Shown here in pieces: positions 13,776 through 41,066 of a DNA stretch of 64,000 nt. A program made the translations under genes and the position numbers. The notes beneath the pieces were generated by a model that saw only the letters and a list, made by a program, of their open reading frames with translations, made no database searches and was not told where the DNA came from. Position 1 is the stretch's first letter, and each line of letters begins with the position of its first letter. This stretch comes from Candidatus Omnitrophota bacterium (GTDB lineage: Bacteria; Omnitrophota; Gorgyraeia; Zapsychrales; Fredricksoniimonadaceae): positions 7,480 to 71,479 of the forward strand of contig CAJARJ010000019.1 of the NCBI GenBank assembly GCA_903944345.1, given 5' to 3'.

Positions 13776-13778
13776 AGA

Positions 13779-22522: not shown

Positions 22523-22552
22523 ATAGCGCTACTTTGAATAAAAGTAGTTTTC

Positions 22553-22629: not shown

Positions 22630-22744
22630 TAATTTTTTCTCATCCGCTGATTCCGAGTGTTCAAAGCTTTCCCTTTCCAAGTCCGGCAAAAAGATTAAAT
22701 ATTAGGATATAAAGTCATAAAAAAGGTTATAGTAGGATTACTAT

Positions 22745-23740: not shown

Positions 23741-23812
23741 TTTTTTGAATGCCTGCTTGTTTTCCCGTAGTTAAAAGATATAATCTGATTATCTTAAATA
23801 AACGGAGGAGTT

Positions 23813-24775
23813 ATGATGGATTTCACCAGGACTAGAGCGGTAATTTTTACCGGCTTGATAGTATTGTTATCAACCGGATGTGATGCGTTTGTTTCCAAGC
23901 CAAAAACAACCAGCAAAAGTAGTTCGCGTTCAGCGGCAACAGATGCCAAGAAGGTTGATGTTGCGGCGATCAAATCAGAATCTGCAGCCAAGATGCTTAC
24001 CGAGCCGTTACCGGCTGGCGTTGTTGCCAAAGTCGGAGAATGGACGCTAACTCTTGAGGAATTTGAGGGGCGACTGAAAGGTGTCAAACAGGTTGTTCCG
24101 GATTTTGATGCGCGCGAGCCAGGCGCAAAAGAGGCCGTTCTCGATGAGCTTTTGCGTCAGCAATTGTTGGTTTACGAAGGTCGCCGTCAGAAGGTTGATC
24201 AGACGCAAGATATACGCAATGCGGTGAAAGATTTCGAGAACACCCTAATTGTTAGGGAGTTTGCCGAAAGCTTGGTGAAGGGCGTTCTGGCGACCGAGCA
24301 GGACGCGCGCGAATATTATGATGCTAACCCAGATGTGTTTATAGTTCCGGTTGAGAAAAGGGTTCGTGAAATTGTTTTGTTGACGGAAGCCGAAGCCAAG
24401 AGCGTTCTGGTTGAGCTTTTGCAGGGGGCGGACTTTGCACAGATAGCCAAAGACCGATCTAAAGGTAAATCGGCAGTTCTGGAAGGCGATTTGGGTTATT
24501 TAACGGAACCCCCTTTTGAGCTTATGAAAAAAGAGATCGATCCGCTGAAGAAGGGGGAGATATCCCGTGTTTTTAGCGGACCAGAAGGGTATTATCTGGT
24601 CAAGGTAGAAGATGTGCGTGGCGGAAACAAGCAACCATATGCTGAGATTGAAACGGATTTGGTTAAATGGCTTACCGGACAGAAACAGCAGCAGGCGGTT
24701 ATGGAGGTCATAGCCAAAACGGCTGAGACCGTCAAGGTTCAGGTGAATGCCGAATTACTTAAGGGCGACAAGTAA
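23813..24775 (+). CDS. Parvulin-type peptidyl-prolyl isomerase lipoprotein (SurA/PrsA-like)
   Basis: 320 aa; lipobox LLSTGC at residues 19-23; SurA-like chaperone N-region; PpiC domain DFAQIAKDRSKGKSAVLEGDLGYLTEPPFELMKK...GPEGYYLVKVEDV. Confidence 0.75.
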   Translation: MMDFTRTRAVIFTGLIVLLSTGCDAFVSKPKTTSKSSSRSAATDAKKVDVAAIKSESAAKMLTEPLPAGVVAKVGEWTLTLEEFEGRLKGVKQVVPDFDAREPGAKEAVLDELLRQQLLVYEGRRQKVDQTQDIRNAVKDFENTLIVREFAESLVKGVLATEQDAREYYDANPDVFIVPVEKRVREIVLLTEAEAKSVLVELLQGADFAQIAKDRSKGKSAVLEGDLGYLTEPPFELMKKEIDPLKKGEISRVFSGPEGYYLVKVEDVRGGNKQPYAEIETDLVKWLTGQKQQQAVMEVIAKTAETVKVQVNAELLKGDK

Positions 24776-24789
24776 CCGGGAGACAAGAT

Positions 24790-25701
24790 ATGGATCTTTT
24801 CGAAAACAAAAAGCAGTTGATCATGATTGCCGCCGCTGTTGTGATCGGCATTGTGGCTTCTGTCATGGTTGCTGGTTTTGTTTCGACGCGCATTAACGAG
24901 GAAACACAAATTTTGGCAGATCGATATCAACAGGCACAGAAGCAGAGAGAGCAGCAATATAACGAGCAAATGGCGGGAATGAATCAGAAAATTGCCGCAA
25001 TGGATCAAAATTACAAAAAAGCCATTGAGGAGTCCAGTCGGGCGGCCGACAAGCGACTGGCAGATGCTGTCGCAGCTGCTAAAGCCGCAGCTGCAGCTGA
25101 ATCAGCCAGAAAGGCGACCGAAGATGCTCAAAAGAATCCGCCCAAAAAGCCAAAACCTTCTCTGGCATTACGTACTCCTGCCGGGAAAAGGGCGATCACA
25201 TTAAAGATAGAGTCTATTGGCGCGGTTGGGGGGTTAATTAATCCGGGAGATTACGTTGACATTATTGCGCACTTGAATCTTCCCGCTGAGCCCGTTGCTG
25301 ACAAACAAAAAAAAGTTGTTACGGCCATGATTTTTCAGAGGGTGCAGATATTGGCTGTGAATACAAATCTTGATCAGATGGGGGAGTACGATGCTCAGCA
25401 GAAAGATGCTGCGCTGAAAATAACCTTTGCGGTTGACCCTCAGGAAGCTGGCCTTTTATCATTTGCAGAAAAGAACGGAAAATTGGAAATGGCTCTACGA
25501 GGCCCCAATGAAAGCAAGAGTGTGATGCTATCTAGTGCGACCTGGTCGACACTTGCCGAGTATGTTCTGGAAAATAGTGGCGCGGATTTGAAGATTCCCG
25601 ATTCAGAGTGGGGGGAAGAGGCACCTGTGGCTGAAGTGGAAACTGTTGACGTTGTTGAAGCTAAACCGTACATTCCGGTCTATCGGGGTGGAAAGGAGTA
25701 G
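24790..25701 (+). CDS. cpaB: Flp pilus assembly protein CpaB/RcpC-like (SAF domain) with an Ala/Lys-rich insert
   Basis: 303 aa; N-terminal TM (IMIAAAVVIGIVASVMVAGFV); SAF-like RAITLKIESIGAVGGLINPGDYVDIIA and QRVQILAVNT motifs; immediately upstream of the secretin. Confidence 0.72.
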   Translation: MDLFENKKQLIMIAAAVVIGIVASVMVAGFVSTRINEETQILADRYQQAQKQREQQYNEQMAGMNQKIAAMDQNYKKAIEESSRAADKRLADAVAAAKAAAAAESARKATEDAQKNPPKKPKPSLALRTPAGKRAITLKIESIGAVGGLINPGDYVDIIAHLNLPAEPVADKQKKVVTAMIFQRVQILAVNTNLDQMGEYDAQQKDAALKITFAVDPQEAGLLSFAEKNGKLEMALRGPNESKSVMLSSATWSTLAEYVLENSGADLKIPDSEWGEEAPVAEVETVDVVEAKPYIPVYRGGKE

Positions 25702-25704
25702 GGA

Positions 25705-27378
25705 ATGTTGGCGTCAATAAATAGAAAATCGGTTGTTTTTGACCGCTCACTCAGGCTTGTTTTGATTCTTTGCCTTTTATCGTTTACTTCTGTCACGGTT
25801 CATGGGGCGGGAAATTTTGATCAGGTTCAGATTCTTAAAGGTGACATGGTCAAGATAGACACCAAAGCGCTAACTAAAGTGTCGATTACGGATCCTGAAA
25901 TTGCAGATATTAGTGGAGCCTCCGCAGAAGGCATCACTGTTATTGGAAAAGAAACAGGCCAGACTGTGTTATTTATCTGGGACGGCGATGTCAAGACAAC
26001 TACGATTGTTCAGGTAGTTCCTGAAAATACTGCATACCTTAAGAGTCGCGCCGAAAGCCTTTTGTTTAGTGCCAACATTCATGAGGTGATAGTTTCAGAA
26101 AGTCCTTATGAAGGTCGGATTGTTTTGACCGGAGAGTTGACGGCCGAAAAAAGAAACATTATGGAGAAGGCGCTTGAGCCATTATTTGGTAAGTATTTGA
26201 ATTTGGTAGGTGATGCGGTCAGTGAGGATATGATACAGATCGATATGCAGGTTACGGATTTATCGACAACTTTGACTAAAGAGCTGGGGGTTGATTGGTT
26301 TTCCGGTACGCAGTCAGGTGATGGAGCCACAGGGAAAGTAACTGGAACTATTGGTGATGGTCTAAATCCCATGGCGGTCGAGGTTCCTCCTGATCAAGCC
26401 GGAACATTTAATGATATGTTCAAGATAGGAAACTTCTATCGTTCAACTGATAGTGCGTTAATAGCCAAAATTAATGCCTTAATTATAGAAGGTCGGGCTC
26501 GCGTTTTGTCCAAGCCGAGGCTTGTTGTCATGAGCGGGAAGCAGGCAACGTTTCTTGTTGGTGGAGAAATCCCGATCAGAACGACAACAACTAATGCCAG
26601 TGGTGGGTCAACGCAGGAAAATGTCGAATACAAAGAGTATGGGGTGAGCTTGATGATGACCCCAACGATTCGTAACGACAAAGTCGACTTGTTGATGAAT
26701 GTTGAAATTAGTGATATTGATGCGGCCAATTCGAGCGGAGATGATGTAGCTTTTACGACTCGCACCGCCCAAACGCAGCTTTTTTTGGATGATCGACAGA
26801 CTATCGTTCTGGCCGGCCTGATACGCAAGCAGGATGGGGTTACCGTCCGAAAAGTTCCTTTGTTGGGAAGTATTCCAGTTCTGGGGATGCTTTTTCGTAG
26901 CAAAAAGACTCCTGCTAATGTCGGGGACAGTGAACTAGTTATCTCCCTGACACCGACGATTATTGCATCAGCCAATAAGAATAAAGGGGCGCGCGCCTTT
27001 CAGGCAAAAAAAGGTGGTTCTGCGAATTTTGAGCGGGATCTGTCTTCTTCATACGTTTCGGTGTCTCAAGCGTTGGCCCCGTATGCCAGACAGGTTCAGG
27101 AAAAGATATCTGCATTTATTGTTTTTCCTTATGAGGCGCGTAGAAATGGCTGGGAGGGTGTCGTAAAATTGGCTCTCATTATCAAACGCGACGGCTCCTT
27201 GAGGGATGCTTTTATTCAGGAATCTTCGGGATATGAAATTTTTGATTTGGATGCTCTTAATACAGCGCGGGGGCTTTCCCCATATTTTCCAATCCCGGAT
27301 GATATTCGCAGTGACGAAGTTTCGGTAACAATACCAATAGCCTATAGATTTGATTCTGTTAATCAAAAAGTTCAATAA
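25705..27378 (+). CDS. cpaC: Tad-type secretin (CpaC/RcpA) with a C-terminal TonB-C-like domain
   Basis: 557 aa; signal peptide; secretin C-domain (LVVMSGKQATFLVGGEIPIRTTTTNASGG...VPLLGSIPVLGMLFRSKKT...SELVISLTPTII); then an extra ~100 aa FIVFPYEARRNGWEGVVKLALIIKRDGSLRDAFIQESSGYEIFDLDALNTARGLSPYFPIP matching the TonB C-terminal fold consensus. Confidence 0.88.
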   Translation: MLASINRKSVVFDRSLRLVLILCLLSFTSVTVHGAGNFDQVQILKGDMVKIDTKALTKVSITDPEIADISGASAEGITVIGKETGQTVLFIWDGDVKTTTIVQVVPENTAYLKSRAESLLFSANIHEVIVSESPYEGRIVLTGELTAEKRNIMEKALEPLFGKYLNLVGDAVSEDMIQIDMQVTDLSTTLTKELGVDWFSGTQSGDGATGKVTGTIGDGLNPMAVEVPPDQAGTFNDMFKIGNFYRSTDSALIAKINALIIEGRARVLSKPRLVVMSGKQATFLVGGEIPIRTTTTNASGGSTQENVEYKEYGVSLMMTPTIRNDKVDLLMNVEISDIDAANSSGDDVAFTTRTAQTQLFLDDRQTIVLAGLIRKQDGVTVRKVPLLGSIPVLGMLFRSKKTPANVGDSELVISLTPTIIASANKNKGARAFQAKKGGSANFERDLSSSYVSVSQALAPYARQVQEKISAFIVFPYEARRNGWEGVVKLALIIKRDGSLRDAFIQESSGYEIFDLDALNTARGLSPYFPIPDDIRSDEVSVTIPIAYRFDSVNQKVQ

Positions 27379-27396
27379 ATAATTGTTTCAGAAATT

Positions 27397-29571
27397 ATGG
27401 CAGCTAAAACGATAACAGTATTTAGTAATAAAGGCGGCGTCGGGAAGACATTTCTCTGCGTTAATAGTGCCTGTTCGCTGGCTTTGTCTGGTAAAAAAGT
27501 TCTTCTGATTGATCTGGATTTCCAGGCAGGACAGGATATGGCGCGCATGCTGAATCTTGTTCCGCGCAGCTCTATTGTTGAATCTTTTTCTCAGTTGGAG
27601 AATCAGGAAGATCCTGCGGTCATCAAGAAATTCGTCATGACTCACGCCATTGGCGTAGATTTTATTTCTGCAGTTTTAAGTTATCGGGAAATGGGGCAGA
27701 TTACTCCAGATAATATACGACCGTTTCTGAGAAAGGCTCAGCAGCTTTACGATTTCATCATTATTGATGTTGGAAAATCATTTACCGAAGTCCTGCTTTC
27801 AGTGTTGGACATGTCCAATCTTATTTTGCTTGCCGTTACTCCTGATATTTTAGCGGTATACCAGATCAAATGGGGCCTAGAGTTGTTGCAAAGCCAGCAT
27901 TTTCCGATGAAAATGATTAAAGCCGTTTTAAATCGTTCGGAAAGTCAAGGCGGAGTTGTGTGGCAGGAAGTTAAGGCGGCGTTAGGTTGCGATATTCTTG
28001 CCAGAATCCCATCAGACGGAAAAGTTGTCGGAAGTGCTCTTAATCGTGGAATTCCATGTGTGGTCGACAGTCCGCGGGCGCGTGTTTCTATGGCATTTTC
28101 GGATCTGGCAGAAATGCTGTGCAACGAAAACAATTATGTGCAGACCACGGAAGTCCTAAGGGTTCGCATAGTCGATGATAAAAAGCAGGATAATTTCTGG
28201 GAAAAGTTTGGTATTACGGAAAAAGCTTCCGGTTCACCAATAAAATATTCAAGCCAAAAAGATGAAGACGAAGGGGTTCGGCTTAAAAAAAGGATTCATG
28301 CAAAACTTGTTGATCGCATGAACCTCAAATCGATAACACCGGAAGCATTGGCAGACCCCGAGCAGGCGGCTAATATTAAGAAACAGGCTGAACGAATTAT
28401 TGTGGATCTCATCACTGAGGAGGCTGGAGCGATTGTTTCTTCTCATCAGGAAAGATCCAAGCTTGTTACCGAAATAGTTAATGAGGCGCTTGGGCTTGGT
28501 CCGTTGGAGGATTTGCTGGCAGATAATGCTATTACGGATATCATGGTTAATAACAAGGATGAGATCTATATTGAGAAATCCGGAAAAATTTTCCTGACCG
28601 GGCGAAAATTTATTTCAGATCAGCAGGTTCGCTCGACAATCGATCGCATTATTGCACCCTTAGGAAGGCGTATTGACGAATCTGTGCCAATGGTGGATGC
28701 TCGTTTGCCGGATGGATCGCGTGTCAATGCTATCATTCCTCCGCTTTCTTTGCGGGGCCCGATGATCACAATTCGTAAGTTTGCCCAGGATCGGTATACG
28801 GTAGAAGATCTTTTACAGCGTTTTCATAGCCTTTCGCGTCCGATGGCGGATTTTATTCAGGCCGCTGTTGTTAGCCGCAAGAATATGCTTGTGTCCGGCG
28901 GGACGGGTTCAGGAAAAACGACCCTCCTTAATATTATTTCAAATAATATTCCGGATGGTGAAAGAATTATTACACTGGAAGATGCGGCCGAGCTCAAGCT
29001 GATCAAGCCGCACTGGGCGCGCCTTGAGTCGAGGCCCCCGAACGTTGAGGGTAAAGGAGCGATTACGATAAGGGATCTTTTTATCAATACCCTGCGTATG
29101 CGGCCAGATCGAATTATTATTGGTGAGTGCCGTGGCCCGGAAGTTCTGGACATGCTACAGGCCATGAATACTGGCCACGATGGATCGCTAACAACCATCC
29201 ATGCGAATTCCACCAGAGATGCCGTAACCCGGCTCAATTCCCTCATTCTTTTAAGTGGAGTAGAGCTACCGTTACAAGCGGTTTATGACATGATTGCGTC
29301 GGCGTTGGATATTATTGTTCAAGTTGCCCGCTTATCGGATGGATCCCGTAAAATTATAGGGATTTCCGAATTAACCGGACGCATTGTGAACGGACTGCCT
29401 GAACTTAAAGATATTTTCGAATTTCGTCATACGGGAATAGATAAAGATGGCCGGGTGATGGGGGATTTTGTGCCAACAGGATATGTACCCGAGTGCTACG
29501 ATGATTTTGTTAAACGCGGGGTTGCTCTCTCTAAAGAAATATTTTCTATAGACCACGTTGTTTCCGCCTGA
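27397..29571 (+). CDS. tadA: Fused TadZ/CpaE-like (MinD/ParA ATPase domain) and TadA/CpaF secretion ATPase
   Basis: 724 aa. N-terminal ~250 aa has the deviant Walker A VFSNKGGVGKTFLCVNSACSLALSGKKVLLIDLD (MinD/ParA/CpaE). A K/E-rich linker follows. C-terminal ~450 aa is a CpaF/VirB11-family ATPase (Walker A LVSGGTGSGKTTLLN, IGECRGPE, His-box TIHANS). Confidence 0.85.
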   Translation: MAAKTITVFSNKGGVGKTFLCVNSACSLALSGKKVLLIDLDFQAGQDMARMLNLVPRSSIVESFSQLENQEDPAVIKKFVMTHAIGVDFISAVLSYREMGQITPDNIRPFLRKAQQLYDFIIIDVGKSFTEVLLSVLDMSNLILLAVTPDILAVYQIKWGLELLQSQHFPMKMIKAVLNRSESQGGVVWQEVKAALGCDILARIPSDGKVVGSALNRGIPCVVDSPRARVSMAFSDLAEMLCNENNYVQTTEVLRVRIVDDKKQDNFWEKFGITEKASGSPIKYSSQKDEDEGVRLKKRIHAKLVDRMNLKSITPEALADPEQAANIKKQAERIIVDLITEEAGAIVSSHQERSKLVTEIVNEALGLGPLEDLLADNAITDIMVNNKDEIYIEKSGKIFLTGRKFISDQQVRSTIDRIIAPLGRRIDESVPMVDARLPDGSRVNAIIPPLSLRGPMITIRKFAQDRYTVEDLLQRFHSLSRPMADFIQAAVVSRKNMLVSGGTGSGKTTLLNIISNNIPDGERIITLEDAAELKLIKPHWARLESRPPNVEGKGAITIRDLFINTLRMRPDRIIIGECRGPEVLDMLQAMNTGHDGSLTTIHANSTRDAVTRLNSLILLSGVELPLQAVYDMIASALDIIVQVARLSDGSRKIIGISELTGRIVNGLPELKDIFEFRHTGIDKDGRVMGDFVPTGYVPECYDDFVKRGVALSKEIFSIDHVVSA

Positions 29572-29574
29572 ATA

Positions 29575-29916
29575 ATGACTGCATATAATATTTCTCGCCA
29601 GACTTTAATTGCAAAACAAGTGCGGTTCGCAGATAGCCCATGGGCGCGCATGAAGGGCTTATTGGGACGCGACTCCTTGAATTCTGATGAGGGATTACTT
29701 ATAACCTGTTGCAATTCAATTCACATGTTTTTTATGCGGTTTTCCATTGATGCTATTTTCTTAGACCGTAATAATAGTGTTGTTGGACTTGTTTGTGCAA
29801 TTCCGCCGTTTTCTTTAAGTCCTGTTTTCTGGAATGCTTCCAAGGTGCTGGAATTGTCAAGTGGCACCATAAAGTTATCAGGTACAGAACTTAACGACAA
29901 GATTGAAATTTCCTGA
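29575..29916 (+). CDS. DUF192 family protein
   Basis: 113 aa; conserved DUF192 core IHMFFMRFSIDAIFLD. Confidence 0.7.
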   Translation: MTAYNISRQTLIAKQVRFADSPWARMKGLLGRDSLNSDEGLLITCCNSIHMFFMRFSIDAIFLDRNNSVVGLVCAIPPFSLSPVFWNASKVLELSSGTIKLSGTELNDKIEIS

Positions 29917-32111: not shown

Positions 32112-32264
32112 ATGAGATGGGTAACAAACCGCAATGCTCAAAATCTTATTGAATATACCCTTGTCGTTGCCGTTGTTTCGGCTGCAGTTGTGGCCATGAG
32201 CACCTACGTGTTTCGCGCTGTTCAGGCGGCACAGAAAGAAATTATAAGGGAAGCCCAGGAATAG
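32112..32264 (+). CDS. flp: Flp-family pilin (50 aa)
   Basis: MRWVTNRNAQNLIEYTLVVAVVSAAVVAMSTYVFRAVQAAQKEIIREAQE: short basic leader, then EY at the Flp processing position and a hydrophobic helix. Below the ORF-track length cutoff. Confidence 0.7.
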   Translation: MRWVTNRNAQNLIEYTLVVAVVSAAVVAMSTYVFRAVQAAQKEIIREAQE

Positions 32265-32296
32265 TTTGTTCTCATCCGGATTTTTAAGGAGGATGT

Positions 32297-32503
32297 ATGA
32301 AGTTAAGGAATAAAAGAGGTCAAGGAACACTCGAGTATGTGATCTTGGTCACAGCAGTAATCGTTGTAGTTATTTATTTTCTTATGGGAACAGGTCAGGG
32401 GTCATTCCAGAACACAATGAATGGTGCATTAAACGAGGCCACTGAAGGAATGTCCACGATGTCCGGTCGTTTTGATGCGGCGTTTGCTCCTCCGGCCCCT
32501 TGA
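32297..32503 (+). CDS. flp: Flp-family pilin
   Basis: MKLRNKRGQGTLEYVILVTAVIVVVIYFLMG...; RBS AAGGAGG upstream. Confidence 0.85.
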   Translation: MKLRNKRGQGTLEYVILVTAVIVVVIYFLMGTGQGSFQNTMNGALNEATEGMSTMSGRFDAAFAPPAP

Positions 32504-32554
32504 GGTTGTGAAGAGTTGACAGAAAGAACAGAATGGCTCAACTGGAGGTAAATC

Positions 32555-32947
32555 ATGTTAAAGGTGTTAAGAAATAAAAAGGCTCAGAATACGGCGGAAT
32601 ACGCCATTCTGATCGCTTTGGTTGTTGGCGCTGTGGTCGCCATGCAGTCTTACGTTCAGCGCGGACTGCAGGCTAGAACACGAGGAACTTCATTGTATAT
32701 GAGAGACGAGATCTCAAATGCGATGAAAGCGGCCGATGCCAGTATGGCCGCCAGTATCGGTAATACCGGGCAGTACAATCCGTATTATCTGGATCAGCAG
32801 TATGAAACGACTCGCGATAGTGAAGAGACTGCAACTGCGGCTCCTTCCAATATCGTGTTGACGGGAACGTCAAATAAGTCTCGTGCTGCCGCCGGATATG
32901 ATGCGACTCTATATAATGGGGATGTAGGCGCAACGGGTCAGGATTAA
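32555..32947 (+). CDS. flp: Flp-family pilin with extended C-terminal domain
   Basis: MLKVLRNKKAQNTAEYAILIALVVGAVVAMQSYVQRGL...; paralog of the gene at 33522. Confidence 0.85.
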   Translation: MLKVLRNKKAQNTAEYAILIALVVGAVVAMQSYVQRGLQARTRGTSLYMRDEISNAMKAADASMAASIGNTGQYNPYYLDQQYETTRDSEETATAAPSNIVLTGTSNKSRAAAGYDATLYNGDVGATGQD

Positions 32948-32976
32948 AAAGCAGGTATTAAACAGGAGAGAAAATA

Positions 32977-33303
32977 ATGAGTATAAGAACAAAAAACAAT
33001 AAGGGACAAACGACCCTGGAGTATATCATCCTGATCGTTATTATCATTGCCGCCCTGTTGACTATACAAGGGTATCTCAAACGCGGCATTCAGGGGCGTC
33101 TGCGCAGTTCAGCGGACGATATTGGTGAGCAGTATGAATCGACAGCCACTAATCATACAAGAACAACGCGAGTTGCCTCTGTTACCAATGAGCGAACGAC
33201 ACAGGCCGGGGAATTCACCGGGTTTATTGGCCAGGAAAACAAGACAGTTGACGAATCTTATAACACGGCTAATGCAGAAATTGTGTACATGCCGGCGCCC
33301 TAA
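32977..33303 (+). CDS. flp: Flp-family pilin with extended C-terminal domain
   Basis: MSIRTKNNKGQTTLEYIILIVIIIAALLTIQGYLKRGIQGRLRSSADDIGEQYE...; paralog of the genes at 33916 and 35058. Confidence 0.85.
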   Translation: MSIRTKNNKGQTTLEYIILIVIIIAALLTIQGYLKRGIQGRLRSSADDIGEQYESTATNHTRTTRVASVTNERTTQAGEFTGFIGQENKTVDESYNTANAEIVYMPAP

Positions 33304-33318
33304 TCAGGAGAGAAACGC

Positions 33319-33501
33319 ATGAAAACAAACAAAGGTCAAAGTACTCTTGAATATGTACTGTTAGTGACAGCAGTTCTGGTGGTCATTATAGGTTGGGTGG
33401 CAGGGCCGGCATCTCCTTTCAAGCAGGCGGTCAACAATACCTTGTATGACGCATCAAATCAAATTGAGTCCATGTCCCAGCGCATTATGGCGGGGAAATA
33501 G
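33319..33501 (+). CDS. flp: Flp-family pilin
   Basis: MKTNKGQSTLEYVLLVTAVLVVIIGWVAGP...; paralog of the gene at 32297. Confidence 0.85.
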   Translation: MKTNKGQSTLEYVLLVTAVLVVIIGWVAGPASPFKQAVNNTLYDASNQIESMSQRIMAGK

Positions 33502-33521
33502 TTGTATAACGAGGAGGATCT

Positions 33522-33887
33522 ATGTTAAAAAGAACTCGCGATCGCAAAGGCCAGAATACGGCGGAATACGCGATCCTGATTGCGCTGGTTGTTGGAGCGG
33601 TTATTGCGATGCAGACTTACGTGCAGCGCGCCTTGAACGGACGGGTTTTTGATACGACCAAATATATGGCCGATAAAACCGCAGAAGTTACAGGAAACGG
33701 GTATCAGTATGAGCCGTATTATACAAATTCGGATTATCAGGTGGATAAAAACACTGGAGAAATCCGTAATCAGTATAATGCCGAGATTGGGATGTATTCG
33801 ACAGCTGAAACATTAAGAGCTGGTAATGAGGTGTCGGATTTTAACCGAGATGGCCTTACGGATTACGGTGACGTAGTTGTTCCGTAA
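33522..33887 (+). CDS. flp: Flp-family pilin with extended C-terminal domain
   Basis: MLKRTRDRKGQNTAEYAILIALVVGAVIAMQTYVQRAL...; paralog of the gene at 32555. Confidence 0.85.
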   Translation: MLKRTRDRKGQNTAEYAILIALVVGAVIAMQTYVQRALNGRVFDTTKYMADKTAEVTGNGYQYEPYYTNSDYQVDKNTGEIRNQYNAEIGMYSTAETLRAGNEVSDFNRDGLTDYGDVVVP

Positions 33888-33915
33888 TTTAATGGAAATT
33901 ATCAGGAGGCATTGC

Positions 33916-34245
33916 ATGAGAATCAATCTAAAAGGAAAAAACGGGCAAACAACCCTTGAGTACGCGATTTTGGTTATGATTATTATTGGCGCTTTGTTGA
34001 CGATTCAGGCCTACATCAAGCGCGGTATTCAGGGGCGGGTCAAAAGTTCGGCGGATGATATCGGCGAGCAATACGATCCGGGTAACACAAATTATGTTAA
34101 GGTAACTAATTCGATATCCAATACCCGCCAGACGTTTAATTCCGGTATTTCACGTTCGGAGTTAACGGCGGCGGATACGGTGGATGTTTCGACCTTCCAG
34201 GAGATAAGTAATCTGGAGTCGGGTGGTTATTGGGGAACACCGTAA
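33916..34245 (+). CDS. flp: Flp-family pilin with extended C-terminal domain
   Basis: From the internal ATG with RBS AGGAGG 6 nt upstream: MRINLKGKNGQTTLEYAILVMIIIGALLTIQAYIKRGIQGRVKSSADDIGEQYD... The track start at 33877 is probably too long. Confidence 0.82.
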   Translation: MRINLKGKNGQTTLEYAILVMIIIGALLTIQAYIKRGIQGRVKSSADDIGEQYDPGNTNYVKVTNSISNTRQTFNSGISRSELTAADTVDVSTFQEISNLESGGYWGTP

Positions 34246-34275
34246 TACGGTTTGGCTTTAGAGCCTTCAGGCTTT

Positions 34276-34318
34276 AAACATCAATGCCGGTTCCGTGACG
34301 GAACCGGCATTGATGTTT
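34276..34318 (+). repeat. Perfect 20-bp inverted repeat with 3-nt loop (hairpin or attenuator) inside the pilin array
   Basis: AAACATCAATGCCGGTTCCG-tga-CGGAACCGGCATTGATGTTT. A smaller hairpin AGCC-ttca-GGCT lies at 34262-34273. Located 30 nt after the stop of the 33916 pilin gene. Confidence 0.8.
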
Positions 34319-34330
34319 AGAAAGAAAAAT

Positions 34331-34681
34331 ATGATTAAGATGTTTCACGGACAACGCGGTCAGAGTGTGGCAACAGAATATGTTGTCATTTTTTTTCTGG
34401 CGATTGCCGCGGTGGCTGCAATGGCCATGTATGTCCGGCGCGCGTTTCAGGGGCGGGTTTATGATGCGAGAATGTATACAATGCAGAAAGCTGCCCAGGC
34501 TTTGGGAGAGTCGGTTCCTTTTGAGTATGAGCCATATTATGCCCAGACGGATAGCAATCTGGCCAAAAGAGCGGATGAAATGACGAGCATTAGTGGTGCT
34601 GAGGTTGTTCTGCGGACGTCTTTCGAAGCTACCACCACGAATAGTCATAGCGTGCAAAGGCAACCGGACAGAGGAATTTAG
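34331..34681 (+). CDS. Flp-like pilin, divergent (start uncertain)
   Basis: MIKMFHGQRGQSVATEYVVIFFLAIAAVAAMAMYVRRAFQGRVYDA...; G-x4-EY motif plus hydrophobic helix. Upstream in-frame ATGs at 34295 and 34313 lie inside the hairpin. Confidence 0.7.
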   Translation: MIKMFHGQRGQSVATEYVVIFFLAIAAVAAMAMYVRRAFQGRVYDARMYTMQKAAQALGESVPFEYEPYYAQTDSNLAKRADEMTSISGAEVVLRTSFEATTTNSHSVQRQPDRGI

Positions 34682-34707
34682 TCGAAATTGCTGTCGGGGG
34701 AAGCGAG

Positions 34708-35061
34708 ATGTTAAAAAAGAAACGTGCCCAGTCACTGGCTGAATACTCGATGTTAACCAGTATTATTGTGGCGGCTATTGTGGTTGTTTATCCGCTGGTC
34801 AAGCGCGGGCACCAGAGTTTGATTAAAGTGGTGGCTGATCAGGTTGGAAGCCAGAGGGATGCTGAGCAGGACTTTTCGCGAGGCTCTTCTTATCTGGCCT
34901 GTTCGGAAACTCGATATAACAGCCGCATTGGTGATGTAGTTCAGGAGGATGGGTACATAGACGGATCGGGAACTGCGCATTTTGCTTATATCCGAACTTA
35001 TGACCAGTCAACCAACAGTTCGAGTATTGAGATTACAAACATGGAGCATGATACGCAATGA
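34708..35061 (+). CDS. Flp-like pilin, divergent
   Basis: MLKKKRAQSLAEYSMLTSIIVAAIVVVYPLVKRGHQ... Confidence 0.72.
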   Translation: MLKKKRAQSLAEYSMLTSIIVAAIVVVYPLVKRGHQSLIKVVADQVGSQRDAEQDFSRGSSYLACSETRYNSRIGDVVQEDGYIDGSGTAHFAYIRTYDQSTNSSSIEITNMEHDTQ

Positions 35062-35390
35062 TCAGGCGCACAAATCAAGACGGACAGACAATTCTTGAGT
35101 ATTCGATCATCATGATTATTGTGATAGCTACTCTTATCACTATGCAGGGCTATATCAAGCGCGGCTTTCAGGGACGCTGGAAATCGGCAGTGGACGATCT
35201 TGGGGAGCAGTATGACCCCCGCGCGGTTTGCAGTACGATTGTTTATTCACAGTCCTCTAATTCAGTTGCCAGTGTTCGCGTGATGGATCATACATCCCAG
35301 AGTGGAATATCGGGCAAGTATACTATACGCAACGATCAGGTGCAGTCTTCAGAGACTAAAACCGGGACAACGGAAGTTCGCCGTCCCTAG
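35058..35390 (+). CDS. flp: Flp-family pilin with extended C-terminal domain
   Basis: MIRRTNQDGQTILEYSIIMIIVIATLITMQGYIKRGFQGRWKSAVDDLGEQYDP...; third member of the KGQTTLEY..KRGIQGR subfamily; ATGA overlap with the preceding gene. Confidence 0.85.
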   Translation: MIRRTNQDGQTILEYSIIMIIVIATLITMQGYIKRGFQGRWKSAVDDLGEQYDPRAVCSTIVYSQSSNSVASVRVMDHTSQSGISGKYTIRNDQVQSSETKTGTTEVRRP

Positions 35391-35402
35391 CGGAAAGATA
35401 TT

Positions 35403-36659
35403 ATGGGGGATGTTCGTAAAAGTTCAGACTGGCGCAAGGCTCAGGCGACCATTGAAATAGCAGCTTTTGGGGCTATTGTTATTTTTATTATTGGATTGAT
35501 TGTTCAGCAAGGATACAGTTCTACCCAACAGCAGAATATACAGCTACAGGCGCTAAGGATAGCGTTGCTAAAGTCTTATGAGAGTTCGCTGCAGGGCAGT
35601 TCGGCCCGTAATTCGGGGAGTTTTATGCTGATTGAGGATCGGCTTTCTCCGGCGGTGGGGAAATATGGCCCGCTGGATCGGCAGGTTTTTATGTCGAGTG
35701 GATCCGGTGTTATGAGCTATTTGTTGTTTCGTCCGATTGATTGGGAAGATTTGCCCAGAGACCTTCCGCTAACGGATGTTAGCGTTAACGGGCAGGATTT
35801 TGTTTTCAGAACAGCTGCTGCCGTCAAGTATACGATTAATCCAGGCTCAATTGTTGCCAATGATAGCATCACCATGCAATCGGGATCTGATCCTGATGCG
35901 GCCAGATTAAGCGAGGAAGGACTATGGGCCTGGCAGAGCATCGTCAAGTATAGCGAAGATTGGACCGGAAGTGCGGACTGTTCCAATATGCGCCGGAATG
36001 CAGCTAAAGAGAAGCCCTGTTCGGCTGCTGTGCAGGACAAGATTCCTTGGAAATGGAAAAAGGTTTCCTGGGGAGAGGCGGCTTCCGAGATTAATCTGGA
36101 TGACGGGGTTTACCCGAGTTACGATATTGATGGCGACCGTAGCGAAGAAACTCTTTACAAGATGAGCGGCAATACGGTATGGGTGATTGATTGGAACGCA
36201 GGTGATGTTGACAACAGTGCGGATGAATGGGAGTTTGCGGACGAAGAAGATATCCCCGGACTCAAAGACACAATGGAAATTGTCTCCATGCCGCTTTATC
36301 CCGGTGATCGTAACACATTGGAGATCAGGGAAAACGGAGCTTCCAGCCGAGCGACCAGCCTCAGCAGTAAAAGCCAGATGGATATTATTACCCGCAAGTT
36401 TGTGATGAATCCGCGCATGATCGGAGGAGGGACGCTTTGCTCAGGCGGCACACCTACCCAAGGATCAGTCGAAGCCTGCTGTCAGGGAGAGGGGTGTTGC
36501 TCTTCAGCTGACAATGCTTATAAAACCTGTTTTCAGTATGTTGACGGTTATGGCAGGAAGGTTCTTTATATTCGTAGCCGCATTCAAGATGAACGAAAGA
36601 GCGGATGGACGACTCCGGTGGTTCCGGCGGATATTGGAGATCGGACGATTTTCAAGTAA
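35403..36659 (+). CDS. TadE-like pseudopilin with a large Cys-containing C-terminal domain
   Basis: 418 aa; N-terminus KAQATIEIAAFGAIVIFIIGLIV resembles the TadE/TadF pseudopilin motif; 8 Cys including the cluster EACCQGEGCC. Confidence 0.65.
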   Translation: MGDVRKSSDWRKAQATIEIAAFGAIVIFIIGLIVQQGYSSTQQQNIQLQALRIALLKSYESSLQGSSARNSGSFMLIEDRLSPAVGKYGPLDRQVFMSSGSGVMSYLLFRPIDWEDLPRDLPLTDVSVNGQDFVFRTAAAVKYTINPGSIVANDSITMQSGSDPDAARLSEEGLWAWQSIVKYSEDWTGSADCSNMRRNAAKEKPCSAAVQDKIPWKWKKVSWGEAASEINLDDGVYPSYDIDGDRSEETLYKMSGNTVWVIDWNAGDVDNSADEWEFADEEDIPGLKDTMEIVSMPLYPGDRNTLEIRENGASSRATSLSSKSQMDIITRKFVMNPRMIGGGTLCSGGTPTQGSVEACCQGEGCCSSADNAYKTCFQYVDGYGRKVLYIRSRIQDERKSGWTTPVVPADIGDRTIFK

Positions 36660-36682
36660 GAGGTTCGTAAAGGGGAGCGGTT

Positions 36683-36925
36683 ATGCTGGATCATATTCCG
36701 AAATCAAACCATTCGTGCGTCGGGCAGAGCACTGTGGAGTTCTGTTTCGGACTTTTTATTGTGTTGTTGCTTTTTTTTGCCCTGGTTCAGGCTGTACGGT
36801 GGGTGGTTCTGGAGAAGATCGAGTTGCGAGTTGATTTTGAACGTTCCTTGCAGACAGGCAGTGGAGCGTATCAGCAGCTGAATCCGCACTTTCATCGATT
36901 GCGGCCTTTGGACATGGAATATTAG
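36683..36925 (+). CDS. TadE-like pseudopilin (80 aa)
   Basis: GQSTVEFCFGLFIVLLLFFALVQ TadE-type N-terminal motif. Confidence 0.65.
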   Translation: MLDHIPKSNHSCVGQSTVEFCFGLFIVLLLFFALVQAVRWVVLEKIELRVDFERSLQTGSGAYQQLNPHFHRLRPLDMEY

Positions 36926-36944
36926 CGGCGGCATTTAACCCCGG

Positions 36945-39773
36945 GTGGTTTGTTTTATGAAAAAAATAATGATGGATAACAGGGGGCAGATGGCGCTGTT
37001 GATGGTTTTGGTTGCTGCCATAGCGCTGGTGTGCCTGGCCATGACTCTGAATCTCACCCGGGTGGCGGCCACAAAAACGTTGACCATGATTGCAGCCCAT
37101 CAGGCATCTTCTTACACAGCTTCGCAAATGGCCAGCTATGCTCAGATGCAGAAAGAAACACAACTCGGAGGAAAGCAGAAAGTTTGTAAGAACACAGGAC
37201 TGCTGTCTTCTTTGTTGACATTTATTATTGTTCTGGTGATTGCGGTGATTGTGACGGTAGCTTCATATGGAACTGCGGGTCCTTCGATGTGGACTGTTGT
37301 TGCTGCGTGGGCAGCTGTAGCTATTTCGGCGGCCTCGGTGGTGTTGCAGGCTACGGTTATTCAGCCCGGATTGACCAAAATGTGGAATAAATTGCAGATG
37401 ACGATAGCAACGACGGAGGATCGTTTTCTGGAGATGGGACTGCAGGTGGCGCTTTCCGGAGCGGTGAGCGATAGTGAGCAAATTCCGGATTATTATGATT
37501 ATAATATGAACGGGGTGATATGGGATGGAGATATAAATTCTGATGAGCAGGATCAGATTTCCCGATTTTCTTATTACTACACGAAACATTTGCTGGATGC
37601 TTCGGCGGAATATGCTTCTTCAGGTGGCGTGGCCGGCATTAATCAGATGAAAACCATTTTAGGGGAGATTCGGGAGTCCTTTGGCCTTGAGATTGATCAT
37701 GGTTGTTGTGCAGACAAGGGGTATCACCCCGCTTTATGTAATCCATGTTGTGTCAGCAAGGAGTTGCGTCCGGGGTCCTGTCACCCGGAGATAGCTGATC
37801 CTGAGCTTTTTCCGGATGTCCCCTCCGAATGTATGGCTGGGGTCATGCCCTACTATCCGTTGAATTACGATCCTCTTTTTTGTAAGCGTATCCCTGATTC
37901 TTCCGTACCTGAGAGTGATCCCAAAAATAATACCATGGCTGCGGTGATGGGGATGGATGATGGAAATATGTCCATGACCAGGGTCTTTCCTAATCAGGCG
38001 TACTCAAGAGAAGCTTTGGACTCGATCAGAAACATGTTTCGTGGTGAGGATAGTGACGGCAAGCTGTTTCCGTTGTTATGGATGAATGCCGACGGCGCTC
38101 CTGAAACGTATAATCTTCGGGCCTCCGATATTACGGAGGCGTCGGCTAATTGTCATTGGTGTTCGGCGGATGGAGGGTTACCCAAGTGTGACAATGCGGG
38201 CAGTAATTATCATTATTGGAGAAATCCGTACACTGGGGCGGCTTTTACCCAGTTGGATCTGGGGGATCCGGTTTGTTCCGGGGACGGTTGCTGCGTTAAC
38301 AGACTTGTTCAGACAAGCGGTTCTTTACATGGCTTGCAAATGGACAAGGTTCAGGGTCTGGAAAGTGTCAGGAATTTCTCCGGACATGAAAGTTTTTTTG
38401 AAGAAGATCCTCCGGATGCAGATTGTCCCGGTAGTAGTGGTTTATGGCGCAAAGGATCAGACTTGTACTGTTCTTCGACCATTCCCTACTATGCCAATTG
38501 TTCCAAAGTTCAGGGCATGAGTTGTCAGGAAGAATATTCCGAAGATTCATGTGAGTGCAGTGAGTCCTTGAGGAAGGATATCTGGCGGGATGATGATCTG
38601 GATGATTTTACCGTCTGGCTGCGACAGGCGGCCACTTTAATTGATAGGTTTATGCAAACCAGCAGTCCGGCCTTGTTTGCCCAGATTGACGATTATTACG
38701 AAGACTTCACCAAACTTGTTGAAGAGTTGAGAGCCAAAAGAGGGCTCATGGAAGGTTGGCGGACGGGCTTTCAGCAGTGGCTGGATCGCACCGATTTCGC
38801 CGAAGGTGGTTTATGGTGCCTTCCAAATGATCCGAACACCTTGGCTATAGATGAGCGTGCCGCAGTGCTGGCTGCAGGACCATATGGTAGTGTTCAGTCT
38901 GTTGTTGCCTGCCTGGATTATAATAAAGATAATGCGGTTAAGCTGCAAACGTGTATTGACAATTCACAGACTTGTGCCAGCGGCCCGCGTCGCCTGGGTC
39001 CGGCCGGAGACCTGGAGTCGAACCAGAAGGCCGCCGTGAATGCCGATATCAAATTCCGCAAACGCTGGGAGTATTTAAGCGGGATTTATAATTTATCGGT
39101 CAGAGTACGCGACAGCCTGACCAGGGCTATTGATACGGTCGATGAATCCAGGTTGAACTCCTTGCTGTCCGCGCTGGAGAGTGTCAAGACGTCCTATGGA
39201 GCAGTCACGGGCAACAATTTTCTTATTTACGGCTGGAAAAGCGGGCAGGGAAAAGGCGGAAAATTGTGGCATGTGGTCAAGGCGGACTTATGGTTACCCA
39301 AGCGTTGTGATGGATTTGACTGTCGGGCTACACGTTTCCCATGGGTAAAAACTTATAAAAAGGGTTCTTTCAAGCGCTGTTACGAGTTATTTTCATATAA
39401 TGGTTGTGTGAAAACACTGGTTAAACGTTATGACGCTTCACCCAGAAGTCTTTATAATGAAAATGCCCAGTTTGGCAGTGGTTTGGCTGTATGGTTTCCT
39501 CGTAACAACAAAAACACAGGAAGCGCGACTATCAACGACGGACTGGATGAGTGTAATCAGGTTGAGTCAGGAGTGCCTTCAGGGGCTTTTATTCTTAGCA
39601 CACAGACCATGAGTTCAGCCCCAGCGGCTTGTCAGAATGCTCTGGCGGGAGCCCTCAGTTCTGCTACAACAGGAAGTGAGCTTTGTGCTGCTTATGAAAT
39701 GGTTGGCAGCGGTTATCAGGTAAGATTTCTGGACTGTAATCAGTGTGGCAGTGTAGATCCACATAATGACTAG
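36945..39773 (+). CDS. TadG-like large pseudopilin / putative pilus tip protein, cysteine-rich (942 aa, ~36 Cys)
   Basis: N-terminus NRGQMALLMVLVAAIALVCLAMTLNLTRVAATKTLTMIAAHQAS matches the TadG N-terminal pattern; remainder is rich in Cys clusters (GCCADKGYHPALCNPCC, CECSES, CNQCG). Confidence 0.7.
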   Translation: MVCFMKKIMMDNRGQMALLMVLVAAIALVCLAMTLNLTRVAATKTLTMIAAHQASSYTASQMASYAQMQKETQLGGKQKVCKNTGLLSSLLTFIIVLVIAVIVTVASYGTAGPSMWTVVAAWAAVAISAASVVLQATVIQPGLTKMWNKLQMTIATTEDRFLEMGLQVALSGAVSDSEQIPDYYDYNMNGVIWDGDINSDEQDQISRFSYYYTKHLLDASAEYASSGGVAGINQMKTILGEIRESFGLEIDHGCCADKGYHPALCNPCCVSKELRPGSCHPEIADPELFPDVPSECMAGVMPYYPLNYDPLFCKRIPDSSVPESDPKNNTMAAVMGMDDGNMSMTRVFPNQAYSREALDSIRNMFRGEDSDGKLFPLLWMNADGAPETYNLRASDITEASANCHWCSADGGLPKCDNAGSNYHYWRNPYTGAAFTQLDLGDPVCSGDGCCVNRLVQTSGSLHGLQMDKVQGLESVRNFSGHESFFEEDPPDADCPGSSGLWRKGSDLYCSSTIPYYANCSKVQGMSCQEEYSEDSCECSESLRKDIWRDDDLDDFTVWLRQAATLIDRFMQTSSPALFAQIDDYYEDFTKLVEELRAKRGLMEGWRTGFQQWLDRTDFAEGGLWCLPNDPNTLAIDERAAVLAAGPYGSVQSVVACLDYNKDNAVKLQTCIDNSQTCASGPRRLGPAGDLESNQKAAVNADIKFRKRWEYLSGIYNLSVRVRDSLTRAIDTVDESRLNSLLSALESVKTSYGAVTGNNFLIYGWKSGQGKGGKLWHVVKADLWLPKRCDGFDCRATRFPWVKTYKKGSFKRCYELFSYNGCVKTLVKRYDASPRSLYNENAQFGSGLAVWFPRNNKNTGSATINDGLDECNQVESGVPSGAFILSTQTMSSAPAACQNALAGALSSATTGSELCAAYEMVGSGYQVRFLDCNQCGSVDPHND

Positions 39774-39793
39774 TCTGAGAGAGGCGGTTTAAA

Positions 39794-40168
39794 TTGTTTA
39801 ACAGACGCGCCTATTCGGTTCTGGAATATCTTGTCATTTTTGTTGTTGTTATTGCCGCTTTGCTGGTTTTGGGGTCGTATATTCATAGTGCCATGCAGGG
39901 GCAATTTCGCACTGCGGGGGCGACAATGGCTGATCTTCGCCAGCATGAAACATCAAGTCAGGACTGCGCCTATGACGATCAGCTTGGGATATGGTATTCT
40001 GTTGCTTGTGTTGATAACGGCTGGGGCACGAATTGCCGTTATGCGGGTGTTGATAATGTCAATATGCGCGCGGAGTGTCGCAGCAACCCCTGTAATGGGC
40101 AATGTCCATTCTCCTGTTGTCAGGAAAATGTGAAACGTAGTTGTGCGATGCCTTGTGCTCCTTCCTGA
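39794..40168 (+). CDS. Pilin-like protein with a Cys-rich C-terminal module (14 Cys in 124 aa)
   Basis: SVLEYLVIFVVVIAALLVLGSYIHSAMQGQF pilin-like N-terminus, then CAYDD...CVDNGWGTNCRYAG...CRSNPCNGQCPFSCCQENVKRSCAMPCAPS. Confidence 0.7.
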   Translation: MFNRRAYSVLEYLVIFVVVIAALLVLGSYIHSAMQGQFRTAGATMADLRQHETSSQDCAYDDQLGIWYSVACVDNGWGTNCRYAGVDNVNMRAECRSNPCNGQCPFSCCQENVKRSCAMPCAPS

Positions 40169-40219
40169 TAAGTGGCATGGATGTTGTCCTGAACAGCAGA
40201 AAAATTTACAAGGAGAAAC

Positions 40220-41065
40220 ATGTTAGCGGTCAGTCTGTTTCTGTTTTTTCTTAGCGTGATGATATCTGTTTATTACGTGATTCCTTTTGTTGTTAGAAGG
40301 ATTATTGAGGTCAACAAGAATCGCGCACGCAATTTTGCCCGGGACATGGATCGAACCATGTTAACCCAGGACATTCAAAAAGTTCGGGTTCTTTTTATTA
40401 TCGGACCTTTTGTTTGTGGAGCCGCCGGTTTTTTTCTGGGTGGAGTGATTGGTGTTCTGGTTGGATCAGCGGTCGGTTTTGTGATCCCCAGAACGTATGC
40501 GTCTATCTTGCAGGGTCAGAGACGGGAACAGTTTGAAAAACAACTGGTGGATGCCCTTATGATCATGTCCAGTTCGTTTCGGGGCGGCTTGAGTCTGGTT
40601 CAGTCTATGGAATCGGTAGTTGATGAAATGCCCGATCCTATCCGCCAGGAATTCGGGCTCGTTCTGGGCGAGAACAAGATTGGAGTTCTTTTGGATGACG
40701 CTTTCAATCGACTTTATAAACGTTTGCCGTCACCGCCATTACAGCAAATGATTAGTGCTATTTTGCTGGCACGCGAGACGGGCGGAAATCTGCCGGCTAT
40801 CTTTTCGCGAATTGTGAGCACTATACGTGAACGTCGAAAGATCGAGGATAATCTTAAAGTTCTGACTTTGCAGGGTAAGCTGCAGGCTTTTGTGATGAGC
40901 GGCTTGCCGGTAGGGTTCTTTTTTCTGGTCAATACAACCAATCCCAATTATTTTAAGATCATGACCAATACCGATACGGGGCGCATGCTGTTGGCGGTTT
41001 GTGCGTTTTTATGGGTTCTTGGAACTTTCATGATCATAAAGATCAGTACTATCAAGGAGGTCTGA
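40220..41065 (+). CDS. tadB: Tad pilus inner-membrane platform protein TadB (GspF-like)
   Basis: 281 aa; T2SS-F domain (LYKRLPSPPLQQMISAILLARETGGNLPAIFSRIVSTIRERRKIEDNLKVLTLQGKLQAFVMSGLP). Confidence 0.85.
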   Translation: MLAVSLFLFFLSVMISVYYVIPFVVRRIIEVNKNRARNFARDMDRTMLTQDIQKVRVLFIIGPFVCGAAGFFLGGVIGVLVGSAVGFVIPRTYASILQGQRREQFEKQLVDALMIMSSSFRGGLSLVQSMESVVDEMPDPIRQEFGLVLGENKIGVLLDDAFNRLYKRLPSPPLQQMISAILLARETGGNLPAIFSRIVSTIRERRKIEDNLKVLTLQGKLQAFVMSGLPVGFFFLVNTTNPNYFKIMTNTDTGRMLLAVCAFLWVLGTFMIIKISTIKEV

Positions 41066-41066
41066 C

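Follow-up and report, generated by a model that had tools for sequence, protein, structure and literature searches.

The window analysed here is a stretch of 64,000 nucleotides (nt) from a Candidatus Omnitrophota bacterium (contig CAJARJ010000019.1, positions 7,480 to 71,479), and its subject is a single open reading frame (ORF), 25705..27378 on the + strand, which encodes a protein of 557 amino acids (aa). The product is a Tad secretin of the CpaC/RcpA branch that carries a TonB C-terminal-type module (TonB_C) at its C-terminus. Secretins need help in reaching, assembling in and staying fixed in the outer membrane, and the systems studied differ in how this is provided: through an S-domain and pilotin, through AMIN domains or through a CpaD belt. 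The TonB C-terminal domain is, to our knowledge, known almost only from energy transduction. Omnitrophota are ultra-small and probably predatory or parasitic bacteria, and their Tad pili are thought to mediate host contact. From the N- to the C-terminus, the protein is organized as follows.

25705..25806, + strand: Sec-type signal peptide, aa 1-34, recognized by sequence reading, with a probable cleavage site between ...SVTVHG and AG; the structural model has a helix at 8-29 and a low-confidence break at 31-35.
25819..26019, + strand: N-terminal all-beta domain of the CpaC/RcpA type (T2SS-T3SS_pil_N, PF13629), aa 39-105, with seven strands at a predicted local distance difference test score (pLDDT) of 94-97.
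26029..26214, + strand: second periplasmic alpha/beta N-domain, aa 109-170, from the secondary structure of the model (pLDDT 91-97); probably a ring-building N-domain.
26230..26964, + strand: secretin core (double beta-barrel region), aa 176-420, ending ...SELVISLTPTII, from the Pfam Secretin family and Foldseek.
26965..27066, + strand: low-complexity flexible linker, aa 421-454, with a short helix at 423-433 and the remainder disordered (pLDDT <50 at 432-450).
27067..27354, + strand: TonB C-terminal-type module, aa 455-550, helix-helix-strand-strand-helix-strand, from Pfam, TIGR01352 and the model.
27355..27378, + strand: short C-terminal tail, aa 551-557, only semi-conserved, and the stop codon.

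The initial annotation of this stretch, made from the sequence alone, had proposed a Tad secretin with a C-terminal TonB-C-like domain, and both the Pfam and the NCBIfam scores exceed their curated cutoffs. The peptide that it quoted as the end of the secretin domain, SELVISLTPTII, lies at aa 409-420 (nt 26929-26964), its TonB-C-like peptide, FIVFPYEARRNGW...PYFPIP, spans aa 471-531, and the extension beyond the secretin, put at ~130 residues, measures 137 aa (421-557). Pfam matches were obtained for T2SS-T3SS_pil_N (PF13629) at aa 53-104 (E 2.5e-8, 33.9 bits against a cutoff of 23), for Secretin (PF00263) at aa 259-420 (E 9.8e-43, 146 bits against 27.5) and for TonB_C (PF03544) at aa 473-548 (E 2.3e-17, 63.7 bits against a curated cutoff of 24.6), and the NCBIfam model tonB_Cterm (TIGR01352) scored 57.9 bits against a cutoff of 27.1. 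These scores lie far beyond chance. The solved sequence nearest to the tail in a phmmer search of the PDB was the TonB C-terminal domain (TonB-CTD) of Helicobacter pylori (E 4e-5).

A full-length AlphaFold2 model, built with 102 homologues as input, had a mean pLDDT of 85.7, with values of 85-97 in the N-domains and secretin core and 91-97 across residues 455-550. Compared with the PDB by Foldseek, the secretin body matched 40 secretin chains at E <= 4e-11, among them the type II secretion system protein GspD (9wfd, 5.6e-28) and the Tad secretin RcpA (8odn, 2.1e-15), along with PilQ and InvG. Structure prediction of the tail, which the initial annotation had put forward as a check, returned a TonB-CTD fold, in which a three-stranded sheet packs against helices: modelled alone, the module reached a pLDDT of 95 and a predicted template modelling (TM) score of 0.84. 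Its 23 top PDB matches were all TonB, FusB, HasB or TolA-III domains, with root mean square deviations (rmsd) of 1.6-2.1 Å. The H. pylori TonB-CTD was the best of them in structural terms (TM 0.73-0.80, rmsd 2.0-2.1 Å), and the module also matched TonB in its complexes with TbpA, BtuB, FhuA and FoxA. The assembled secretin would be a ring of 13-14 subunits, and the module is presumably periplasmic.

The fusion is real and old, and it is the standard form of the secretin across the phylum Omnitrophota. A homologue search of 5.8 billion proteins yielded 578 relatives, and the best 120 of these, at 39-53% identity, all contained the three Pfam domains. They are entered in the databases as ‘TonB family protein [Candidatus Omnitrophota]’ or ‘pilus assembly protein CpaC’; the former name misleads in the case of several hundred entries whose proteins are in fact secretins. 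When the search for loci was limited to a single genome per species, relatives turned up in 205 genomes, and the best 80 loci were retained. The alignment ran through residues 543-556 in all 80, and the secretin and TonB_C parts shared one uninterrupted frame in 78. The two exceptions were a trivial alignment overhang in the same frame (L054) and a frame change (L074). A frameshift or a pair of separate genes, which the initial annotation had named as grounds for doubt together with a tail that failed to score against TonB_C, is thus ruled out by the single frame in the window and at 78 of the 80 loci, and the tail scores 63.7 bits. All of the best species-level loci represent one syntenic Omnitrophota Tad operon, and the fusion was seen in hundreds of independent assemblies (NCBI, JGI, ENA and Logan).

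A profile of the module alone was also run against 1.84 billion cluster representatives. Among the top 150 matches examined, at least 73 were secretin fusions (as 50%-identity clusters), 60 with one module and 13 with two. A second tandem module thus occurs in about one-sixth of the representatives, and the long members of the family reach 640-830 aa. A word-index homologue search with the tail alone returned only two short fragments and was uninformative. The survey of phylogenetic distribution that the annotation had suggested found secretin-TonB_C fusions to be widespread. Its remark that such a fusion was unfamiliar on CpaC/RcpA secretins holds for the literature, in that no account of one turned up in a full-text search that took in the principal papers on Omnitrophota and on Tad; it does not hold in the sense of rarity. 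One 2026 preprint refers to ‘TonB-domain content’ beside giant genes and draws no connection to the secretin.

Spread beyond Omnitrophota was considered and rejected. Some loci carry the labels ‘uncultured Planctomycetales’, ‘Elusimicrobia bacterium’ or ‘Candidatus Elulimicrobium sp.’ (L013, L016, L017, L019 and various of L032-L076); they have the same synteny and the same range of GyrA and MDH identity, and the labels are probably taxonomic errors. Two divergent secretins with two TonB_C modules each, P0212 (1091 aa) and P0236 (1045 aa), include long extra regions, and P0212 continues for 312 aa beyond its second module. One member of a divergent cluster is labelled as a Hydrothermarchaeota archaeon metagenome-assembled genome; it lies on a 3.5 kb contig and is probably mis-binned.

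Conservation differs sharply between the parts of the tail. In the family alignment, mean pairwise identity was almost the same in the TonB_C module (57%) and the secretin core (58%), and only 13% in the linker. The module had a fixed length of 91 aa and no indels, and the linker varied from about 23 to 230 aa; one set of homologues spanned 27-162 aa and the cluster representatives 23-196 aa. Eight module residues (Y460, P475, A478, G485, G497, S508, G509 and D514) were invariant in the 102-sequence alignment A2; Q465, P526 and Y547 were conserved there at 98-99% and were invariant in the 57-sequence set A1. The YP motif is represented by F474-P475 in the window protein; across the family, its first position is Y in 87% and its P is invariant. 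This identity, fixed length and lack of indels, set against the 13% of the linker, bear the signature of a binding module under selection. The linker is disordered, low in complexity and variable in length, and so would act as a tether; its composition, rich in Ala, Pro, Val, Lys and Glu, resembles that of a TonB spacer.

The gene stands in a conserved block with the order gyrA, mdh, lipoprotein peptidyl-prolyl isomerase (PPIase), cpaB, secretin::TonB_C, cpaE::cpaF, DUF192, a gene for a 601-aa protein, pilins, pseudopilin-like ORFs, tadB and tadC. The remaining Tad features of the window are as follows.

23813..24775, + strand: lipoprotein SurA/PrsA-like PPIase, the first gene of the block (Pfam Rotamase_2, Rotamase and SurA_N_3).
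24790..25701, + strand: CpaB/RcpC alignment-complex protein (Pfam RcpC, E 2.7e-23; TIGR03177 above cutoff).
27397..29571, + strand: CpaE/TadZ-like (MinD-type) domain fused to the CpaF/TadA ATPase (AAA_31/ParA at the N-terminus, T2SSE at 365-646).
32112..41957, + strand: the rest of the Tad cluster, comprising pilins, a TadE-like protein, large pseudopilin-like ORFs, TadB and TadC (from the ORF list, with matches to Flp_Fap, Class_IIIsignal, TadE and, twice, T2SSF).

The genes around the secretin are closely packed, with gaps of 14 nt between those for the PPIase and CpaB, 3 nt between cpaB and the secretin and 18 nt between the secretin and cpaE::cpaF; the last gap, where no gene intervenes, has a median of 50 nt over the family loci. 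The 724-aa CpaE/TadZ-CpaF/TadA protein, uninterrupted in frame in 69 of 70 loci, is the second conserved fusion of the operon. Downstream of it, a DUF192 protein (29575-29916, +; 66 of 80 loci, always 3' of cpaF) and a 601-aa protein lacking a Pfam or NCBIfam match (30028-31833, +; 58 of 80 loci, 3' of cpaF) have no known role in Tad systems. The pilin repertoire is unusually large for a single Tad locus: some ten small pilin-like genes in tandem, whose products have N-termini of the Flp or class III signal type (32112-35390, +), are followed by pseudopilin-like ORFs without a Pfam match, of 418 aa (35403-36659), 942 aa (36945-39773) and 124 aa (39794-40168), the latter two rich in Cys. At L014, an unrelated AAA ATPase occupies the position between the secretin and cpaE. 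A scan of the operon for promoters and terminators found no excess over shuffled sequence and was uninformative.

On its upstream side, the operon adjoins the replication-origin genes yidC, dnaA, dnaN, dciA, gyrB and gyrA and then mdh (12165-22479), and the gyrA-mdh-Tad adjacency is kept in many loci. The Tad locus of Velamenicoccus archaeovorus LiM occupies bases 12382-29832 of CP019384.1 (PMC10066038), a position that fits the origin-side Tad of the window. On its downstream side, a terminator-like hairpin, AAAAATGTCCAGTCTGAGGCTGGACATTTTTATT, separates tadC from a giant ORF (42432-64000, +), which starts ~475 nt 3' of tadC, extends past the end of the window and encodes at least 7,189 aa; a scan of its first 2,000 aa gave a Peptidase_C39-like stretch at aa 205-286 (E 3e-9). 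Giant genes beside pilus and secretion loci have already been reported in Omnitrophota (PMC10066038; preprint 10.64898/2026.06.07.730766).

The closest points of comparison for the tail are the accessory elements of other pilus secretins. The S-domain that follows the barrel in Pseudomonas aeruginosa RcpA forms a random coil; the four residues at its end insert in the pilotin lipoprotein TadD, and no secretin is obtained without them (PMC10499894). The Omnitrophota protein and the RcpA-TadD complex (8odn; PMC10499894) share the class of secretin, the operon logic of RcpC/CpaB, TadZ, TadA, TadB/C and Flp, and a disordered post-barrel tail that serves, or in Omnitrophota would serve, for contact with an accessory factor. 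In RcpA, however, this tail is a coil of ~35 aa that binds a tetratricopeptide repeat (TPR) lipoprotein, whereas the Omnitrophota tail, of 27-230 aa, ends in one or two folded modules of 91 aa, and no TadD-like gene was found among the large ORFs of the window. In Caulobacter, CpaD is a lipoprotein encoded directly after cpaC; it is predicted to be OmpA-like, belts the barrel, is essential and has been proposed to tie the secretin to the wall (PMC13170226). There too an accessory element is encoded immediately 3' of the secretin core, but CpaD is a separate protein with a predicted OmpA-like domain, whereas the Omnitrophota element is fused and folds in the manner of TonB/TolA. In PilQ, the AMIN domains act in cis: they bind peptidoglycan and serve in the anchoring and placement of the type IVa secretin (PMC5285504). 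They resemble the tail as extra periplasmic domains within a pilus secretin, present in one or more copies per subunit, and differ from it in being N-terminal, in fold and in their demonstrated binding of peptidoglycan; the TonB_C module is C-terminal.

These parallels suggest a role for the tail. It starts where the S-domain of RcpA starts, so its exit point would lie close to the outer membrane, at the inner face, and a ring of 13-14 subunits would display a TonB-type module there from every subunit. The shortest linkers, of 23-31 aa, cannot span to the inner membrane, which on geometric grounds would place the ligand near the outer membrane or at the wall. Modules of the TonB/TolA C-terminal fold capture partner peptides by beta-strand addition (PMC12204202). 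By docking the secretin to an envelope partner, the module would favor its assembly, placement or mechanical anchoring, and the tail would do in cis what TadD of Pseudomonas and CpaD of Caulobacter do in trans. The initial annotation had offered a peptidoglycan anchor, a periplasmic partner or a substitute for an absent pilotin or TadD; as hypotheses, these are compatible with the position of the tail and with a window in whose large ORFs no TadD or CpaD was found. By analogy with the systems above, and with middling confidence, we favor a tethered docking or anchoring module that would support the assembly or stability of the secretin. The evidence leans toward a protein as its ligand.

The best candidate for this role is the SurA-like PPIase, a lipoprotein encoded by the first gene of the operon and itself an unusual component for a Tad locus. 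It was found in 69 of the 80 loci; since 10 of the 11 misses were at contig ends, it is present in 69 of the 70 with enough upstream sequence. Its lipobox, ...LLSTG-CD in the window with Asp at +2, was seen in all 32 N-termini inspected, and an Ala/Pro-rich tether of 35-95 aa follows across the loci. Covariation was explored with the locus proteins of the 80 loci, by comparing pairwise evolutionary distances from which the shared phylogenetic signal had been removed; this exploratory analysis took in ~70 paired sequences. The TonB_C module and the PPIase gave a partial r of 0.41-0.51 under four control sets (permutation p <= 0.002), the highest value of 15 protein pairs and the top pair in 90% of random half-samples. 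The signal held with rank correlation and without the two-module loci.

At the level of domains, TonB_C correlated with either PPIase domain at 0.51-0.52, and domains within the same protein gave 0.54 (PPIase), 0.35 (CpaF) and 0.23 (CpaB). The module did not track its own secretin body to a comparable degree, and with TonB_C controlled for, the residual between the PPIase and the secretin body was 0.05-0.10. The known contact between secretin and CpaB scored 0.28-0.32, which indicates that the method registers real partners. These correlations make the PPIase the leading candidate partner of the module. A lipoprotein helper that is co-encoded with the secretin and apparently coupled to its C-terminal element would be a formal parallel to the pilotin/S-domain pair.

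Several points weigh against this reading. Covariation provides an indirect test, partial Mantel statistics are prone to false positives and overstated significance, and shared compositional drift among soluble periplasmic domains may contribute to the signal. Inspection by eye of the PPIase tether revealed no TonB-box-like motif. A conserved VLA+VGxWTLT segment of the PPIase was considered as a TonB-box-like strand and set aside, as it is simply the start of the SurA-N domain. The lengths of the secretin linker and the PPIase tether showed no rank correlation (Spearman 0.06), their Pearson value of 0.44 being driven by four very long linkers. By the rules of Escherichia coli, Asp at +2 leads to retention of a lipoprotein in the inner membrane, unlike a classical pilotin, and sorting rules differ among phyla. 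Among the large ORFs of the window, Pfam recognized neither a TPR pilotin (TadD) nor an OmpA-like lipoprotein (CpaD), but either could be encoded beyond these 64 kb. Finally, loci encoding TolC-type channels with TonB_C modules show no PPIase, which argues for a more generic ligand.

These channels belong to the nearest non-secretin relatives of the module, which are proteins with 3-8 tandem TonB_C modules. In P0280 (L081, 3320-6871), whose cluster is labelled Omnitrophota, six N-terminal TonB_C modules precede the OEP domain of a TolC-type channel, and in P0148 (L082, 7853-10243) there are three; this architecture recurs in at least 12 clusters. Adjoining P0148 is a truncated ORF that exceeds 2,294 aa. 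As in the secretin, TonB_C is placed in these proteins on an outer-membrane channel, and in multi-module proteins generally, including Peptidase_M56-TonB_C arrays as well as the OEP fusions, it appears as a periplasmic binding unit detached from energy transduction. They differ from the secretin in carrier and in copy number (3-8 per chain), and the OEP fusions also in that their modules are N-terminal. Recurrence on two unrelated families of outer-membrane channel fits a generic envelope-docking or anchoring unit.

It is because of this recurrence that an anchor in the cell wall stays viable as an alternative. The tethered modules would bind peptidoglycan or another envelope polymer and hold the secretin against the forces of pilus retraction, in the way of the AMIN domains of PilQ or as predicted for CpaD. 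Wall-anchoring accessories on pilus secretins have precedents (PMC5285504, PMC13170226), and the modules are present in high copy number, at 13-14 per ring, and are doubled in 13 of the 73 fusions. Arrays of 3-8 modules, as in the relatives, are an architecture typical of wall-binding repeats, the occurrence of the same module type on TolC-type channels favors a generic envelope ligand, and linkers of 23-31 aa would, by their geometry, restrict the reach of the module to roughly the distance between outer membrane and wall. Peptidoglycan binding by TonB C-termini has been described in older work. On the other hand, covariation specific to the PPIase is unexpected under wall anchoring, and what the TonB/TolA C-terminal fold is established to do is capture partner peptides by beta-strand addition (PMC12204202). 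On this evidence a wall anchor is unlikely, if still a serious contender.

The capture of TonB boxes is decidedly improbable. Here the modules would bind the TonB-box strands of TonB-dependent receptors or other barrels, which would gather these proteins about the secretin or modulate how they are used. As a TonB-CTD the module is canonical, and its nearest solved relatives are functional TonBs, including those in complexes with BtuB, FhuA, FoxA and TbpA. An outer-membrane protein (OMP)-like gene lies directly 3' of the secretin in L011, L021 and L030, and TonB3/PocAB is needed for the type IVa pili of Pseudomonas (cited in PMC5285504). The PocAB-TonB3 system of P. aeruginosa (PMC5285504) is similar in that a TonB-family protein is tied functionally to a type IV pilus machine and secretin; it is a separate, motor-linked paralogue acting in trans, unlike the Omnitrophota protein, in which only the C-terminal domain is present and is fused. 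Against the capture of receptors, no gene for a TonB-dependent receptor was found in the window, where the large ORFs were scanned with Pfam, or in the conserved locus, the inserted OMP occurs in only 3 of the 80 loci, and a motorless tethered TonB_C would block rather than energize a receptor. The inserted genes themselves (L011 9673-10875, L021 9646-10647 and L030 9674-10822) lie between the secretin and cpaE and encode products of 333-400 aa that begin with a signal peptide and are OMP-like at the C-terminus (...GSKFG[LMV][NQ]F), without a significant Pfam match.

A link to the inner membrane, in which the module would bind CpaB/RcpC or another Tad component and couple the outer and inner subcomplexes, is a little harder still to credit. 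Tad machines do require a bridge that aligns the secretin, provided by CpaI in Caulobacter (PMC13170226) and by the RcpC hairpin in Pseudomonas (PMC12307814), and some linkers, at up to ~200 aa, could span the periplasm. Many linkers of the family, at 23-40 aa, are nevertheless too short to do so from the rim of the barrel, residual covariation between TonB_C and CpaB is near nil (0.03-0.19), and the secretin retains normal N-domains for contact with CpaB.

A force transducer or gate opener of the TonB kind, built into the secretin, is very improbable. Three parts define TonB and TolA (PMC12204202): a transmembrane helix at the N-terminus for contact with the motor, a spacer that spans the periplasm and, at the C-terminus, a domain that attaches to its target by beta-strand addition. 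Compared with TonB/TolA (PMC12204202; H. pylori 5lw8/6sly), the Omnitrophota protein is alike in fold (TM 0.73-0.80) and in the motifs (Y/F)P, EG.V, DG, SSG and last-strand IPI.Y; a Pro-rich stretch often precedes the C-terminal domain. The spacer is disordered and, in many homologues, rich in Pro, Lys, Glu, Ala and Val, but it measures only 37 aa in the window protein, and relatives have spacers down to 23 aa. Nothing beyond this fold and, in some homologues, a Pro/Lys/Glu-rich spacer reminiscent of TonB domain II speaks for a transducer. The N-terminus consists of a cleavable signal peptide followed by secretin domains and lacks a TonB-type transmembrane helix with an SHLS-type motif, there is no ExbB/ExbD or TolQ/R partner, and the anchor is an outer-membrane channel, so that the tail is held at a membrane that is not energized. 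Pfam scans of the large ORFs in the window found no ExbB/ExbD, and motor genes of this type were likewise not found in the conserved locus by tblastn mapping. The protein contains a TonB_C domain yet is not a TonB: because a signal peptide replaces the membrane anchor and nothing links the protein to an ExbB/ExbD motor, energy transduction is effectively refuted by the architecture. Misassembly, read-through of two genes or chance similarity can be dismissed almost with certainty, given a fusion that recurs in hundreds of independent assemblies, in one frame at 78 of 80 loci and with scores far over the cutoffs.

What is new at this locus is a Tad secretin with a tethered TonB-type module in place of the pilotin-binding tail; the sequences themselves were already known in databases, under misleading names. 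The tail would be a further solution to the problem of secretin support, one that reuses the TonB C-terminal domain and is fixed across a whole phylum. For studies of Tad biogenesis in Omnitrophota, the 137-aa tail and the neighboring lipoprotein PPIase offer defined targets. A wider proposal, which we advance only tentatively and regard as doubtful in its entirety, would combine the two as an unrecognized secretin-helper pair that replaces the S-domain/pilotin contact, with Omnitrophota using detached TonB_C modules as a general accessory of outer-membrane channels. If true, this would represent a principle of envelope organization not described in model bacteria.

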